Virus record (IMG/VR): IMGVR_UViG_3300042402_003577
Span: 32,001 to 96,000 of that record
Source: a virus
Strand: one strand, 5' to 3'
DNA length: 64,000 bases
Part shown: one piece after another, positions 1,150 through 7,796 of the stretch
How the letters are laid out: the number at the start of each line of letters is the position of its first letter
Position numbering within the stretch: the first letter of the stretch is position 1
Program-made: the position numbers and the translations under genes
The notes under the pieces: model-generated
The model's input: the letters and a program-made list of their open reading frames with translations, nothing else
What the model was told of the DNA's origin: nothing
The model's database searches: none

Positions 1150-2100
1150 TTAATATCTTGTAAAACCGTTATTTATTTTTTGTGATTTTCTCTGGTCTAA
1201 GCCATGATATTGATTAGGCACCAAAAATTGATTTGTAGCTTCACCCATAGCCCACATTTCTTCAAATGTTTGAGCATTCATGTCTTCTCTCGCTTTAATT
1301 TTCCATTTTGAATATTCTCTATCAGCTAGTTGGAAAAAGTTTAAATCAGCACCACTTCTGCTCTTTCTATATTGTATATAAGCAAACTTTCTTTCTAGTG
1401 CTGCAATTAAAGCATTTGTATAACTTCCCATATTTGGAACTAACGGAAGACCATCTTCTCCAATTGGTATTCCCAAATACCCAATTAATAAATCCGCTTC
1501 TTTAAAGTCTGTTATAATATATCCATTATCTATGGTAAAAAAATGTGAAGGGTGTAAATGAATCCCCAATTCTCTATAATTTAAAAGCGATACTTCATTT
1601 TTTTGAGGTTGTAATACTATCCATCTTCTTGGGTCCGTAGTGTACCATTGCGTAAAATCTTGTACTGTTGCAAACTTGAAACCTTTTGCTTGCTCTAGAT
1701 TATTGATAAATAAATATCCTGCAGTTTCTATATAGTTTTGTTCACAATTACAATGTTTATCTTCAGGGCATTTACAAACTCTTTTATACTCCCATGTACA
1801 GTTTTCATTACCTGGCTCTTGTCTAATGTACTCTGTCAAGAAAAAAGCTTCTTCTTGAGGTCGTATAGGTTGTGCCAATACATATAAAGACTGTCTAAAT
1901 CCGCAAGGAAGCTGTGCTTTGTAATTTCTTATTTTAAGCTTCTGTACTCGTTCTTTATATTGCTTATAAGTCCCAATATCGTTATAAGCATCTAAGATCC
2001 ACTCAGTGAGTAGATCTTCGTTAAAGTTTAATTCTGATACTGCAATTTGTTTCCAGTTTTCAATTACAGTGCTTATAGGTACTAATTCTATATTAATCAT
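1150..2100 (-). CDS. Tail tubular/ring protein (crAss-type)
   Basis: EWI.DA..IG and LP.GF N-terminal motifs, C-terminal I.YLGIP..EDG.PLVP; position between IHF-like and stabilisation genes. Confidence 0.6.
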   Translation of the reverse strand: MINIELVPISTVIENWKQIAVSELNFNEDLLTEWILDAYNDIGTYKQYKERVQKLKIRNYKAQLPCGFRQSLYVLAQPIRPQEEAFFLTEYIRQEPGNENCTWEYKRVCKCPEDKHCNCEQNYIETAGYLFINNLEQAKGFKFATVQDFTQWYTTDPRRWIVLQPQKNEVSLLNYRELGIHLHPSHFFTIDNGYIITDFKEADLLIGYLGIPIGEDGLPLVPNMGSYTNALIAALERKFAYIQYRKSRSGADLNFFQLADREYSKWKIKAREDMNAQTFEEMWAMGEATNQFLVPNQYHGLDQRKSQKINNGFTRY

Positions 2101-2476
2101 CGTTTATTATTTTTTTAGCTAATTCTCTATTTAAAAATCTATATGGTTTAAAGCTATAATACTTTGTTCTTATGCTTTTTCCCCAAGATATTTTATATCT
2201 AACTCTATTTGAATGAAAATTTGTATAGTAGATAGTTTTACCTAATTTTTTTGTCATTCCAAAATCTACTAATTTCTTATCAGATTTATAAGCAGTTAAA
2301 TAAAATATCCCCAATCCAGAAAGACTCACTCTGTTTCTATAGATGAGTCTTTGTCCAGCAACTTTAAATATTTCTTCTACAACTCTTTTATATGTTTGCT
2401 TATCCTCAAATTTGCTATCCTTTGCCGCTTGAGTTAGAGAATAAAAAGGTTTTGGTTTATTACTTACCCTTCGCAT
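2093..2476 (-). CDS. HU/IHF-like DNA-binding protein
   Basis: Basic 127 aa with VSLSGLGIFYL and FKPYR..NREL motifs; synteny with crAss IHF-like gene. Confidence 0.6.
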   Translation of the reverse strand: MRRVSNKPKPFYSLTQAAKDSKFEDKQTYKRVVEEIFKVAGQRLIYRNRVSLSGLGIFYLTAYKSDKKLVDFGMTKKLGKTIYYTNFHSNRVRYKISWGKSIRTKYYSFKPYRFLNRELAKKIINDD

Positions 2477-3131
2477 TATTTAAAGTATCGTCAGTTGTAC
2501 TATCATTTGTAACATCCTTCTTAAAGTAAGGATATACTTTCATTATCATTTCATTCATAATAGAATACATAGTTGTAACTAGTCTGCTATCTAAAGGAAA
2601 CTCTGTGTCTAATAAATCACAAACTGGGCCACATGTAGCTTTAATTACTTCGTCATCATAAAATAATCCTTCAATTTTTATCCATTTAGGACTATTTAAA
2701 TCTGGTACAAATAAATAGTTGTTTTTAATCAAATATTTAAAATCACTTTCTTCAATAAAAGAATATCTTTTAAATGAGTTAGAAGACTCCGATAGTATTC
2801 TATTGTAAGTATCTCCCCTATCATTATACACTTTGTTAATCATGTTATTGATAGTTTCAGGTATAGGGTTTTTTGATTTCAACCACTTGCATCCTGAAGG
2901 AAGCTTTTCACAACATTCGTTAGTATCTGCTAATTGAAGCTCAACACATTCTAAAGTTTGTAAAGCTAAATTATAATTAAACCTAGGGTCATTTAATCTA
3001 TCATATATTAATCTAGCTCTAGCTAATTTCATTAAATGATAGATATATTTTGTAGGAAAATCTGTGTCATCTGTAGGAAGACCATGATCTATAGGCACCC
3101 TATACCCACTTATAATTTCTCTTATTGTCAT
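2460..3131 (-). CDS. Virion structural (tail ring/connector) protein
   Basis: QTL.CVEL, YLF..., EFPLD..L motifs typical of crAss ring proteins; synteny. Confidence 0.55.
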   Translation of the reverse strand: MTIREIISGYRVPIDHGLPTDDTDFPTKYIYHLMKLARARLIYDRLNDPRFNYNLALQTLECVELQLADTNECCEKLPSGCKWLKSKNPIPETINNMINKVYNDRGDTYNRILSESSNSFKRYSFIEESDFKYLIKNNYLFVPDLNSPKWIKIEGLFYDDEVIKATCGPVCDLLDTEFPLDSRLVTTMYSIMNEMIMKVYPYFKKDVTNDSTTDDTLNNAKGK

Positions 3132-3143
3132 AATGTTTTATTT

Positions 3144-3338
3144 TTAATTATACTGTGCTTCTAGCCAATTTGTATAACTTGTTAAAAAAATTTGATAAGG
3201 CATATTTCTAAATTTGCATAAAGGGTGAGAAATAAAATACCTATAAATTTCTACTAAACTTATAGTGTTTTCTCCCATATCAACATTGACTTGGTTATTA
3301 TTTATATTTCCTCCTGTAGAATAAAAAAAAGTTCTCAT
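3144..3338 (-). CDS. Hypothetical protein
   Basis: Tightly packed in minus-strand operon. Confidence 0.5.
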   Translation of the reverse strand: MRTFFYSTGGNINNNQVNVDMGENTISLVEIYRYFISHPLCKFRNMPYQIFLTSYTNWLEAQYN

Positions 3339-3342
3339 ACTA

Positions 3343-4560
3343 CTATATAAATATGTGAGTTAACCTTGCCACTTGTCCAAACTCTTTATGGTGAATAAAT
3401 CCTTCTATCGCCTTTGGTACTCCTGTATACCCATTTCTATGATGCCAGCTATCTGAAGCACTAGGACTTCTTAAACTTTCAATTGTTACTCCTATATGGT
3501 CCTTAGAGGTCTTGTGGTGTACATGGTGAGTATAAATATATCTATGCTTGCATTCACTCCATTCTTTTGATTCGTGGGCCATTAACAAAGGCAAATCATT
3601 TTGTTTTGCTCCATCCCCATGAGTTGTACCTATTAGGTTATTATGATACTTATAATACTTTCTATGTGCAATAGAGCAATCAAAAGTAATATTATCACAG
3701 TTTCTAAACCAAGTCTTAATCACATCTGCTAAGAAAAAGCCGTTAGTATAGTCATGGTTCGATGGGTTGAATGTAAAATGAACATCTGCCACTGGTATTA
3801 GCATCATTAACACATCTACATATAGCTGCTTTGCTACCAAGAAATTAGAATACCACATACCATCAGTGTCTTGTGGAGTACCGCTTGTTGTAGTTCTCCT
3901 TGGATTATCAGTGTGCAAAATATCATTTCCTGCTACAAAAATAATTTGGTCAATATTAAACCCTGATGTTTTATCCAAAATACCTTGTACCCCTTTTAAA
4001 ACTCTTTCTACCGCAATATTTACATTATATTCATCCCCTGTTTCAAAAGCCATAGCTAATTTACCGATATGAATATCCGCAGGATCTATTATCAATAGAT
4101 GGCCCTCACTACTAGGGGTTCTTTTTATTACAGGAAAAGAAGGAGAAAAACTTTGTAAATCTTCTATTAGTTCATTATAGAATCCATCTTCTTCTTTTTT
4201 CTTGTATAAAGGATTAGTAAAGAACATTGAAGCATCTTGTGTTTTTAACCACCCATGCTTTACATCTTCTACAGGCAATCCTAGTTTTTTACTTTCTTGG
4301 TAGATAGCATTTAATTCTTTAACTGTATCCACCATCTCTGTAGGAACCCATACATTAGTCCCTTCATTTATTTTTTCTTTTACAAAGGAATTTTTTCCTG
4401 ATTGTTTCAGTAAGAAATTTAATTCTTCTGGACATAGGTTAAACCCTTCTCTGTTTAGTCTTTTAAGTAAAGTTTTTTTACTCGGTCTTCCAAATTGTAG
4501 ATAATTTTGATTGTTTTCTCTCCAATTTAAAAATTTATTTATTGTTTTTTGTGCTATCAT
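3343..4560 (-). CDS. Calcineurin-like metallophosphoesterase
   Basis: ADIHIG, GNDILH, SNHD, HGD, HHVHH metal-binding motifs; TACTTTTG promoter box at 4577-4584. Confidence 0.8.
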   Translation of the reverse strand: MIAQKTINKFLNWRENNQNYLQFGRPSKKTLLKRLNREGFNLCPEELNFLLKQSGKNSFVKEKINEGTNVWVPTEMVDTVKELNAIYQESKKLGLPVEDVKHGWLKTQDASMFFTNPLYKKKEEDGFYNELIEDLQSFSPSFPVIKRTPSSEGHLLIIDPADIHIGKLAMAFETGDEYNVNIAVERVLKGVQGILDKTSGFNIDQIIFVAGNDILHTDNPRRTTTSGTPQDTDGMWYSNFLVAKQLYVDVLMMLIPVADVHFTFNPSNHDYTNGFFLADVIKTWFRNCDNITFDCSIAHRKYYKYHNNLIGTTHGDGAKQNDLPLLMAHESKEWSECKHRYIYTHHVHHKTSKDHIGVTIESLRSPSASDSWHHRNGYTGVPKAIEGFIHHKEFGQVARLTHIFI

Positions 4561-4655
4561 TATTATAATTTTTATGCAAAAGTAATACTTTTTTTATTTA
4601 TCGCACATATTTTTTTACAAAAGTAAAAAAAAATTATGATTTTATTAGTTTTTAT

Positions 4656-4697
4656 AAAAAAAATACCCCTTGCTTAAAGGGAATCAGCAAGGGGTAT
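4656..4697 (-). terminator. Intrinsic terminator
   Basis: 12-bp stem ATACCCCTTGCT/AGCAAGGGGTAT followed by T-run on minus strand. Confidence 0.8.
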
Positions 4698-4732
4698 CCG
4701 ATAGAATTGCTCTATCTTTATATTTATCTCAC
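4656..4732 (-). ncRNA. Candidate ~75-nt small RNA
   Basis: TATCTTTG box at 4734-4741, hairpin GATAGAG-CAA-TTCTATC, then terminator; no ORF. Confidence 0.5.
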
Positions 4733-4854
4733 GCAAAGATACTACTTTTTTTTTAATTAGAAGAAAAAAAATGTATTTTTTGTGATTTTTTAACATAATT
4801 ATGGCATATTACTAGAACATAAGTTATAGTATATATATTTAGAAAATAAAAGGT

Positions 4855-5171
4855 TCTCCCGAGAAAAAATCTAGGCAATTTGAATACTTTGCAATAAACG
4901 CATCTATCTTGTTTCTATTGGTAAGTTCGTTCATAAAACTCCATATACATTTCTGTACTTAGGAATATTTACTATCGTGTATTTTATAGGAAATTGGGAA
5001 GCCCAATTCTTACGTCTTTTGATCCTATTTTTTCCTCTCCTTCCCTAAAGGTATCTAAATTGTTAATCCTCGGAGGTCCTTACTTATTTAAAACTATCTA
5101 GTGAAATCTTATGAACCAGGGTTTCCCCTCAAACGTCAGGCACCAGAAATTTGTCTCAGTGAGATAAATAT
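4855..5171 (-). ncRNA. Candidate ~310-nt structured ncRNA
   Basis: Own promoter (TATATTTG 5176-5183), paired ends, 15-bp internal helix 5102-5116/4929-4943, GAAA-capped hairpins; no ORF of 60 aa or more. Confidence 0.6.
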
Positions 5172-5210
5172 TCTGCAAATATACCTCTTTTATTTTATTT
5201 GTCAATAGTT

Positions 5211-5672
5211 TTATTTTATTTTTATTCCAAAAGCAATACCAACACCAGGCTGTATACCTTGTGGGGTAAAGGATAGAGTTGGACCAGCTATTAAAGAAAA
5301 TTTATTTCTTGCCTGCAAATATTGTATATGTTTCACTCTAACTGTATCCCTTACAAGCATTGTTTTGATTAAAGTATCTGATTTAACTATTACTTTATCA
5401 CAGTTTGTAAGGGATGTTTTTAGGGCTACTACTAAGCTGTCACAAACAGAATCTTTACCTGCAACATATCTTTCATCTATCTTATATACAATCTCTTTGG
5501 ATTTAATGTAATGATCTTTCACCACCTCTCTTTCCACTATCAATGTGTCAACTTTTCTAGACAAACTGTCTTCTAGTCTTTGTATAATAGCTTCATCTTT
5601 GGCAATAGTGTCTTTTGAAATCCACATATATACTCCTAGTAAAACAATAAGAATTATAAATAAATATTTCAT
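5211..5672 (-). CDS. Putative spanin-like lysis protein
   Basis: N-terminal TM helix, coiled coil, follows endolysin and holin. Confidence 0.5.
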   Translation of the reverse strand: MKYLFIILIVLLGVYMWISKDTIAKDEAIIQRLEDSLSRKVDTLIVEREVVKDHYIKSKEIVYKIDERYVAGKDSVCDSLVVALKTSLTNCDKVIVKSDTLIKTMLVRDTVRVKHIQYLQARNKFSLIAGPTLSFTPQGIQPGVGIAFGIKIK

Positions 5673-5932
5673 TATTCTGCTTCGTTTTCTTCGTTTTTAT
5701 TAGATTTTATAATGCTTGTAATTTTTTCTGTAGCGGCAATACCAAATGAACCTAACACTAGTACTTCAAAAGCATTGAATATAAATTCATTTACAACAAG
5801 CTCTTTTCCTAAATATCCTGTAACAATATCTACAATTGCGAATAAAGACATCATAATAAATGCCAGGAATCCAATAACAGATTTCTCATTAATTGAATTA
5901 TCATCGCTAAACATTTCTCTAAAAAATTTCAT
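5672..5932 (-). CDS. Putative holin (2 TM)
   Basis: Two hydrophobic helices, charged C-terminal tail, next to endolysin. Confidence 0.55.
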   Translation of the reverse strand: MKFFREMFSDDNSINEKSVIGFLAFIMMSLFAIVDIVTGYLGKELVVNEFIFNAFEVLVLGSFGIAATEKITSIIKSNKNEENEAE

Positions 5933-5964: not shown

Positions 5965-6432
5965 TTATTTATAAGGAACATAACTTGTTTTACCGTTAAC
6001 TTTTACGGCTTTAAGTATTTGGTTTCTTTGTTTACCAGTTGATTCATAAGAAACATGAACCCAATCAGGATTTTTATCTGTACCAAATTCCCAAATCATT
6101 TGGTCAAAATTCAAGTTATCTTTAATGTAATGGAATACTTGAGCATTAGTAACTCCACTTGAGCTACCATCCATATCAATATCAATTGCTTCACCTTGAC
6201 AATGTTGTGAGGTTAAACTACCGCCAATAGCTTGGTTTAGAGCTTTGCTTCTATATCCACTAGATATAAAAATAGGAACATTAAAATGCTCTCTAATAGG
6301 CTCGAATATTTTTTCAGCCAATAATTTAAAGTTTTCAATATGCTCAGGAGTAGGCATGTTGCTAACTCCTTTTCTTTTTGCAGTTTCTGATCTTGTAACT
6401 TCCGCTAGATCTAAATGTTTTGATAATTTCAT
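5965..6432 (-). CDS. Endolysin, peptidase M15 family
   Basis: ISSGYRS, SQHCQGEAID, WVHVS zinc-peptidase motifs. Confidence 0.9.
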   Translation of the reverse strand: MKLSKHLDLAEVTRSETAKRKGVSNMPTPEHIENFKLLAEKIFEPIREHFNVPIFISSGYRSKALNQAIGGSLTSQHCQGEAIDIDMDGSSSGVTNAQVFHYIKDNLNFDQMIWEFGTDKNPDWVHVSYESTGKQRNQILKAVKVNGKTSYVPYK

Positions 6433-7364: not shown

Positions 7365-7796
7365 TTATTTATTTTTTGTAGTTTTCTTTATTTCTTGAGT
7401 TCTTATTAAAACTTCTTTTAAGTTTGTCCAAATGGAGAAACCAAAGATAGCTTTTATATTTTCATCAATACTTTTTGCCTCAACAAAGCACAAAGACAAT
7501 GTTATGAATTTAGTTAGTAAATAATCATTCTGATAGTGTGCCTTAGTGAACTCATTTATCAAATTGTAATCTATTGTAAAGAATGTTATTACTGTTAATT
7601 GATATAGTAAAAACTTGCTTATAATAACACTTGCTTTTCTAGACGTGACAGACTCCCATCCTTCTTGTTTAATTGCTTTTGTAATGCCCAATATAGTATC
7701 TAGAGCAATCATAGCTCCTACAGCTAATAATAAACCCGCTATCGGAGAAAAAAACGTAATTATGGACATTATGAATGCATTAAAATACTTTCCCAT
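7365..7796 (-). CDS. Holin (phage holin family 4-like)
   Basis: DTILGI.KA, ITS.K, E.KSI.EN motifs; three hydrophobic segments. Confidence 0.7.
   Translation of the reverse strand: MGKYFNAFIMSIITFFSPIAGLLLAVGAMIALDTILGITKAIKQEGWESVTSRKASVIISKFLLYQLTVITFFTIDYNLINEFTKAHYQNDYLLTKFITLSLCFVEAKSIDENIKAIFGFSIWTNLKEVLIRTQEIKKTTKNK

Follow-up and report, generated by a model that had tools for sequence, protein, structure and literature searches.

Introduction

GOLLD (RF01998) and ROOL (RF03087) are free-standing phage genes for RNAs of complex fold, roughly 600–800 nt in length, which show a patchy distribution and conserved junctions set amid variable helices. Phage-borne ornate RNAs form cages that consist of RNA only (PMC12286853). 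The pRNA of phage phi29 (RF00044) is encoded by the phage, transcribed separately and structured, with 5' and 3' ends that pair. A different kind of architecture is represented by the clamps of group I introns (P4–P6 of Tetrahymena; L2–P8 of Azoarcus), where an exact CCUAAG...UAUGG receptor sits in a short capped hairpin and an invariant GAAA loop on another arm; this 11-nt receptor is known chiefly from group I and II introns and from RNase P. At the level of gene organization, the protein-coding morons of lambdoid phages have a promoter and a terminator of their own, lie between two conserved genes, are absent from close relatives and share their slot with other cargo. To our knowledge, very few RNA classes of complex fold have been described in phages, and crAss-like phages, which are the most abundant phage group of Bacteroidota, have so far yielded none.

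Here we describe a locus which combines several of these traits. It lies in a 105.8-kb viral record of which bases 32001–96000, a stretch of 64,000 nt, were analysed as "the window". Pfam matches to crAss tail ring proteins 1 and 2 (window 1150–3131) identify the phage as crAss-like, and its ring protein 1 is 25–28% identical to that of cultured gut crAss-like phages. The original prediction for this DNA, a large phage non-coding RNA of a possibly undescribed class, is borne out by 20 covarying base pairs, by the lack of coding capacity under three genetic codes, by a conserved promoter of the host type and by the absence of any match in Rfam 15.

Results

Genomic context and limits of the cassette

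Every gene surrounding the RNA locus is carried on the minus strand (Table 1). The 650-bp gap predicted to be free of ORFs does contain no gene-sized ORF (window 4560–5211), nor does one appear when TAG is read as Q or TGA as W; the two largest ORFs in it span 40–41 aa and both fall within its least conserved part. No tRNA or tmRNA gene was found in the window by ARAGORN. A reverse transcriptase (RVT_1) had no match across the 105.8-kb genome, which argues against an RNA of the retron, DGR or group II type.

Table 1. Features of the RNA locus and its surroundings; position n of the RNA corresponds to window coordinate 5173−n on the minus strand.
Feature	Window coordinates	RNA positions	Strand	Remarks
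Holin	7365–7796		−	Lysis cassette
M15 endolysin	5965–6432		−	Lysis cassette
153-aa gene	stop at 5211		−	Upstream border of the gap
RNA promoter	5176..5205		−	TTGACA (−33 region, 5205–5200) and TATATTTG (−7 box, 5183–5176)
RNA core	4902..5169	4–271	−	Closed by P1; compensatory changes
P1		4–11/264–271	−	3 compensatory, 3 one-sided, 0 broken
Arm P2	5097..5147	26–76	−	P2a, P2a', 8x8 internal loop and P2b
P2a		26–32/70–76	−	30:72 changes from G-C to A-U
P2a'		34–35/64–65	−	Invariant
P2b	loop 5125–5122	44–47/52–55	−	45:54, 46:53 and 47:52 swapped in lineage F (3/4 pairs); GAAA loop 48–51 constant
P3 5' strand, P4 5' strand, hairpin domain P5	5043..5094	79–83, 90–94, 97–130	−
P3		79–83/258–262	−	Invariant
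P4		90–94/248–252	−	2 compensatory (91:251, 92:250)
P5		97–130	−	1 compensatory (102:125 in P5a, G.U to C-G)
J5/6, purine-rich junction strand	5029..5042	131–144	−	Includes AAGGAGAGG; in all lineages; single-base indels at edges
Arm P6	4986..5028	145–150/182–187 and 165–171/175–181	−	2 compensatory (146:186, 167:179)
Arm P7	4928..4977	196–245	−	8 compensatory; 11-nt receptor; GNRA-capped tip
Variable linker 3' of P1	4876..4901	272–297	−	58% differences from L183, with indels
Conserved 3' island	4852..4875	P8: 298–303/309–314	−	Small hairpin P8, then GAGAACC
AT-rich spacer	4742..4851		−	Poorly conserved, 43% differences from L183
Second TAnnTTTG box	4741–4734		−	3' of spacer, followed by a variable stretch of 40–60 nt
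Intrinsic terminator	4697–4655		−	Stem 4697–4663, U-run 4662–4655; probable end of cassette
Two tandem TAnnTTTG boxes	4577–4625		−	Re-drive the 405-aa gene
405-aa exonuclease-like gene	3343–4560 (start at 4560)		−	Downstream border of the gap

A promoter of the Bacteroidota type had been claimed upstream of the RNA. Both of its parts were recovered: TTGACA-16-TATATT at 5205..5178 scores 11/12, and the Bacteroidota box TAnnTTTG lies at 5183–5176. This −7 box is invariant across all lineages that carry the RNA (see below). TAnnTTTG is enriched genome-wide (215 sites vs 156±12 in shuffles), and four copies are found on the minus strand within the gap. Two of them, near-identical TTACTTTTG motifs 41 nt apart, stand in tandem ahead of the exonuclease-like gene, and look duplicated in comparison with relatives whose slot is empty and which have one such promoter. 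The terminator stem shows a compensatory change in two related contigs (L183/L184). Because lineage F has one promoter and one terminator, 5205–4655 is read as a single cassette. A 13-nt inverted repeat (5171–5159/4732–4720), which in the window joins the start of the large RNA to the region past the second promoter box, is broken in L089, L183 and L184, and lineage F is devoid of the second unit; it was rejected as a conserved feature.

In a freshwater metatranscriptome (X1) the locus is represented by seven tiny, low-depth contigs that are scattered and consist of single reads, one of which covers 5072–5222 across the promoter; they are no evidence of a transcript either way.

Homologues and conservation

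Copies of the RNA were recovered from about 18 viral contigs, all from metagenomes of the freshwater type, which fall into six lineages. IMG/VR and the JGI metagenomes were searched with Blast, nhmmer and pattern matching. Identity to the window is 99–100% in lineage A/A2, 97% in lineage B (L089/L178) and 94% in lineage C (L003, L095 and others), and amounts to about 79% across the whole gap in lineages D and E (L183, L184, L196). A search of whole records of sister phages brought in the last of the six, lineage F, a 72%-identical copy at 67.7 kb of a complete genome of 97.7 kb (G001) whose ring protein 2 is 65% identical; a further contig (L231) carries a copy 99.6% identical to the latter. 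In G001 the RNA occupies a divergent intergenic region amid small unannotated ORFs. It has there a promoter of its own (TTTG...TAGCTTTG) and no second promoter box, and a terminator lies about 415 nt from the start. The position beside the lysis cassette, as predicted, holds for the window; it is incidental, given that the RNA of lineage F lies elsewhere in the genome. In L089, homology with the window begins just upstream of the RNA promoter, and the gene that precedes the cassette is the endolysin. In the 140-kb phage of lineage D (L183, ~4200–5900) the 405-aa gene aligns partly: the identity is 73% as far as about window 4194, and the alignment resumes at 3250; the gene downstream of the RNA therefore appears to be partly replaced.

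In these metagenome searches the RNA was restricted to a narrow clade. A scan of 185,579 prokaryote species genomes with the RNA signature gave chance matches only, an 18-mer scan returned, besides the known copies, only chance matches in coding DNA, and the phage GenBank collection contained no DNA match.

The RNA is better conserved than its surroundings. Relative to L003 and L089 the RNA block has 3–5 times fewer differences than the flanking coding DNA, and the spacer at 4750–4850 is the most diverged stretch. When compared with L183, the core (4901–5170) differs at 12% of sites, the linker (4865–4900) at 58% and the spacer at 43%, and the flanking genes are 72–82% identical; positions 19–125 of the RNA show only three changes in lineages D and E. 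Further 3', the small island ending in GAGAACC is kept in L183/L184 and recognisable in lineage F (UUCGGGGUAACC), with both flanks diverged. Lineages D and E change G302 to A and C310 to U within this island, which, if the two bases are paired as they appear to be by eye, would be a compensatory exchange.

A fold supported by covariation

The final model comprises 71 base pairs, of which two are ever broken and 20 have compensatory changes among nine sequences from six lineages, most of these events falling on two branches (D/E and F). Lineage F was added to the alignment as hand-anchored segments which were checked to reproduce its sequence. For the close lineages, RNAalifold proposed 68 pairs, six of them compensatory. 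In the MAFFT alignment of the same lineages, 98.3% of the cells pair in the refined model, and its six compensatory pairs were matched by none of 500 shuffles and by no slid control. This refined close-lineage model, with P1 not yet revised, has a folding energy of −45 to −57 kcal/mol in the five lineages tested. The RNA thus passes the test of covariation in homologues, which is a stronger one than folding energy.

The core is organized around a three-way junction (P1/P2/P3) and a four-way junction (P4/P5/P6/P7). All helices supported by covariation are nested, and the junction strands never change. P1 agrees with the predicted start site, which is located 2–4 nt upstream of it in both promoter contexts. 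The largest share of the covariation is contributed by P7, with compensatory pairs 196:245, 202:239, 204:237, 207:235, 208:234, 209:233, 218:225 and 219:224. P3 and P5 rest on prediction since these helices do not vary, except for 102:125 in P5, and the variable sites 116 and 126 of the P5 domain fall in loops. Judged by eye, lineage F has an unrelated hairpin in place of P6 which follows the same plan of outer helix, 5' internal loop and inner hairpin, and it gains one C and one G that may form an extra pair beside 34:65.

Several elements of the original prediction recur in this model. In the GGG-GAAA-CCC hairpin (P2b), three of four pairs are exchanged compensatorily in lineage F around an unchanged GAAA loop; in GUACA-GAAA-UGUAU, the tip of P7, compensatory changes affect two pairs in L183/L184 and every loop is of the GNRA type; and in P6, where AUAGGA/UCCUAU encloses AAUUGGG-CUU-CCCAAUU, pair 146:186 changes from U-A to C-G and 167:179 occurs as U-A, U.G and C-G. 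Folding is specific for the minus strand (z = −2.41, vs +0.23 for the plus strand) and includes several G.U pairs. The conserved core, at about 270 nt (5169–4902), is shorter than the multi-helix RNA of about 310 nt that had been proposed.

Two long-range pairings did not survive. The nested 15-bp helix (57–71 with 230–244) is perfect in the window and dominates its minimum-energy fold, yet compensatory changes are absent from it, 6 of the 15 pairs are broken in some lineage, and its 3' strand covaries with 196–209 instead. The proposed pairing of the ends (9–19 with 309–318; 26–30 with 299–303) shows several breaks and no more than a single, ambiguous covariation; P1 is the closing helix that is supported. 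In the window the fold that includes both pairings has an energy of −48 kcal/mol, which weakens to −19 in lineage E. In the comparison with shuffled sequences the full-length RNA stands out (z = −2.41) but the core (z = −1.14) and the L183 copy (z = +0.31) do not: the former value depends on the unsupported 15-bp helix, and the expectation that energy would set the RNA apart from shuffles is therefore borne out only by half.

A GAAA tetraloop and its receptor

The middle of P7 contains an exact canonical 11-nt GAAA receptor, CCUAAG (4963–4958)/UAUGG (4945–4941), which flanks the GUACA-GAAA-UGUAU cap and had not been recognised originally. It conforms to the module's definition, an internal loop bordered by C-G pairs and closed by G.U. 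The exact motif thus occurs together with a partner GAAA tetraloop elsewhere in the same RNA. We take the receptor hairpin to resemble P8 of the Azoarcus type. The receptor is invariant in all nine sequences; by contrast, changes occur in all three of the pairs below it and in the cap stem above. Likewise, the loop of P2b is GAAA in every lineage, whereas that at the tip of P7 drifts (GAAA, GAGA, GUGA, GCAA). Stems that are swapped around a constant GAAA loop and a constant receptor are what docking of the P2b loop into the receptor would lead one to expect. A second candidate contact, between the loops GACGU and ACGUC (37–41 with 157–161), was discarded: both loops differ in lineage F, where a weak A-U alternative is left.

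A near-identical receptor hairpin (UCCUAAG-UAUA-GAAA-UAUA-UAUGGA) was encountered in an unrelated small viral contig whose last 800 nt or more are free of ORFs and rich in GAAA-capped hairpins (L091:2070–2867). This stretch has no Rfam match at E<=0.1; a further large RNA missing from the catalogues is one possible reading, an intron truncated by the contig end another.

Other contents of the slot

In phages whose ring protein 2 is 59–67% identical, the same slot has one of three contents: a gene for a 371-aa PAS-domain protein; no insert, the gap being about 130 nt long and containing one promoter; or one of three unrelated ORF-free inserts of 600 nt. The 371-aa protein (L006:2426–3541; also L098, L215–L219 and L221) has two N-terminal PAS domains and represents an unusual, sensor-type moron for a crAss-like phage that looks lytic.

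The three unrelated versions of the ORF-free insert, each about 600 nt long (L226:3030–3640, L225:3045–3645, L228:2650–3295), all open with a TTG..TAnnTTTG promoter and a small predicted RNA of about 110 nt. The latter carries a 5' purine run complementary to the pyrimidine loop in its own terminator hairpin; run and loop covary from version to version in a manner reminiscent of an antiterminator or a pseudoknot. Each insert then continues with a unique non-coding middle part of 340–385 nt. Fold z scores are −2.37 (L228) and −1.88 (L226), and none of the three has an Rfam match at E<=1.

Comparison with known RNA families

Rfam 15 returned no match for the whole window at the gathering threshold and none within 4855–5183 at E<=10; with the most divergent copy (L229) only noise was obtained. 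The families covered include GOLLD, ROOL, RNase P, 6S, SRP, tmRNA, pRNA, riboswitches and ribozymes. Together with the missing tmRNA and reverse transcriptase genes, this agrees with the earlier remark that the RNA was not recognisable as a tmRNA, RNase P, 6S or SRP RNA or a group I/II intron. Two apparent resemblances, of GGUUCAUAAG to part of the RNase P RNA from E. coli and of positions 57–79 and 262–273 to the R and S elements of group I introns, were dropped, as they lack the required complementarity and any support from models. No published description of the RNA was found in the literature searched; an IMG/VR catalogue of candidate structured RNAs lists motifs of 29–151 nt (PMC10690425) and may overlap with it.

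Discussion

In the view we favour, a compactly folded non-coding RNA is encoded here by a free-standing gene, an optional moron of a small group of freshwater crAss-like phages, and acts in trans by virtue of its shape; we put the probability of this reading at roughly 0.55. In its sequence context the RNA behaves as a moron that extends from promoter to terminator within a variable slot: it brings a promoter and a terminator of its own, lies between conserved genes and is present in some relatives only. The alternative contents of the slot and the second location in G001 argue that the RNA is accessory rather than a component of the virion or replication machinery. Since the cassette is optional and occurs at two genome positions, the RNA probably serves as a weapon or tool rather than in housekeeping. 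The narrow distribution would also fit a selfish or neutral passenger.

How such an RNA might operate can be outlined from its fold. Docking of the P2 GAAA loop into the P7 receptor would clamp the two halves together, and in the clamped fold the invariant junction strands would be exposed as a surface for binding or catalysis. Transcription would continue via the variable linker and the small conserved hairpin to the terminator at 4697–4655. The RNA is envisaged to work in trans by shape and not by pairing with mRNA; no significant complementarity to the rest of the 105.8-kb genome was detected, which counts against antisense action. Our best guess is that a host protein is bound and diverted, the RNA serving as a decoy in takeover or anti-defence or as the core of an RNA-protein particle. 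The RNA is probably dispensable for building the virion. Swappable peripheral helices combined with invariant junctions and a tertiary clamp are, we infer, the signature of RNAs that work by shape, such as ribozymes, aptamers and the cores of ribonucleoproteins.

The main rivals of the preferred trans-acting RNA that binds a host factor are a ribozyme and an assembly made of RNA only. In the former case, the invariant junction strands would form an active site that processes the RNA itself, for example by trimming its 3' tail past P1, or that cleaves or ligates a second RNA. The pattern of conservation is the one seen in known ribozymes and aptamers, the receptor is of a type at home chiefly in group I and II introns and RNase P, and the conserved core stops exactly at P1, to be followed by the variable tail. 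Nevertheless, no ribozyme model of Rfam matches at E<=10, and neither a recognisable catalytic motif nor evidence for a processing site was found, so that we regard catalysis as unlikely. An RNA-only homo-oligomer like those of ROOL, GOLLD or OLE, in which GAAA loops and receptors would engage between molecules, seems less likely again. It could draw on the precedent of cage-forming ornate phage RNAs (PMC12286853), on the second GNRA loop at the tip of P7, and on our own rough count of helix lengths (P2 vs P3–P4–P7), which does not clearly bring the loop level with the receptor. On the other hand, at about 270 nt the RNA is far smaller than ROOL, GOLLD and OLE, it matches none of their models, and it has no tRNA neighbourhood.

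Two further proposals ascribe a regulatory or conformational role to the locus. The fold predicted originally (57–71/230–244 plus 9–19/309–318) might be a genuine alternative conformer of a two-state switch, given that its 15-bp helix is perfect and dominant in the minimum-energy fold of the window, that three one-sided changes are compatible with it (62:239, 67:234, 69:232), and that the 3' island, its would-be partner, is conserved. Such a switch is nonetheless improbable: the helix lacks compensatory changes and loses 6 of 15 pairs, the energy of the fold decays from −48 to −19 kcal/mol across lineages, and the same 3' strand covaries with 196–209. Slightly less credible still is a cis-acting leader or riboswitch that would decide between stopping at the terminator at 4697–4655 and read-through into the 405-aa gene and the structural operon. 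The cassette does lie upstream of, and codirectional with, the next gene in both genome contexts, with the terminator in between. However, some 140–240 nt of unconserved spacer separate the core from the terminator, where an aptamer coupled directly to an expression platform would be expected, and no conserved alternative pairing with the terminator was found. Moreover, the next gene has its own tandem promoters past the terminator and is expressed without the RNA in relatives, and the downstream genes are unrelated between the two contexts. The unconserved spacer and the independent downstream promoters make a role in cis unlikely.

That the locus is no functional RNA at all but an element acting at the DNA level (a hot spot of recombination or insertion, or a protein-binding site) or a trace of recent exchange between phages is very improbable, since, although the slot clearly is a recombination hot spot and the metatranscriptome gave no evidence of expression, 20 pairs are compensatory, G.U and U.G pairs are valid on one strand only, the tip is always GNRA, the receptor is exact, and a 72% copy at another locus keeps the fold.

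Beyond the trans-acting RNA that we prefer, it is possible, if on balance doubtful, that the RNA is the founding member of a new catalytic or protein-capturing class of phage RNAs, a mobile and self-promoted cassette that is swapped among the cargo slots of crAss-like phages to manipulate or evade Bacteroidota hosts. If so, the slot of sister phages would act as a reservoir from which further RNA classes could come, given the other, unrelated non-coding inserts in it. The presence of other non-coding cargo in the same slot suggests that more such RNAs remain undiscovered.

Comparison with the systems described at the outset places the RNA between several of them. With phi29 pRNA it shares phage origin, separate transcription, structure and paired ends, here by prediction; unlike pRNA, it matches no pRNA model, and a part in the packaging motor is unlikely because sister phages sharing the virion genes lack the RNA, which also occurs at different loci. 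The group I intron clamps have the same receptor in the same kind of capped hairpin and the same invariant GAAA on another arm. In contrast to these introns, our RNA is fully nested without the P3/P7 pseudoknot and has no match to RF00028. Its location between genes and after its own promoter leaves no exons or splice sites: it follows the stop of the 153-aa gene, and relatives free of the RNA keep the same flanking genes intact, on which grounds a group I intron was rejected. In its genetic organization the locus corresponds to the morons of lambdoid phages, except that the cargo here is a structured RNA and theirs is protein. Finally, GOLLD and ROOL are matched in being free-standing, complex-folded and patchily distributed phage RNA genes with conserved junctions amid variable helices. 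They differ in their covariance models, neither of which matches at E<=10, and in their size, which compares with a core of about 270 nt here; furthermore, the present RNA has no adjacent tRNA genes and a host of Bacteroidota-like type. Its size suits probing, crystallography and cryo-EM, and the tertiary clamp offers an immediate handle for mutation, which makes it a tractable entry to the purpose of large orphan phage RNAs such as GOLLD and ROOL.
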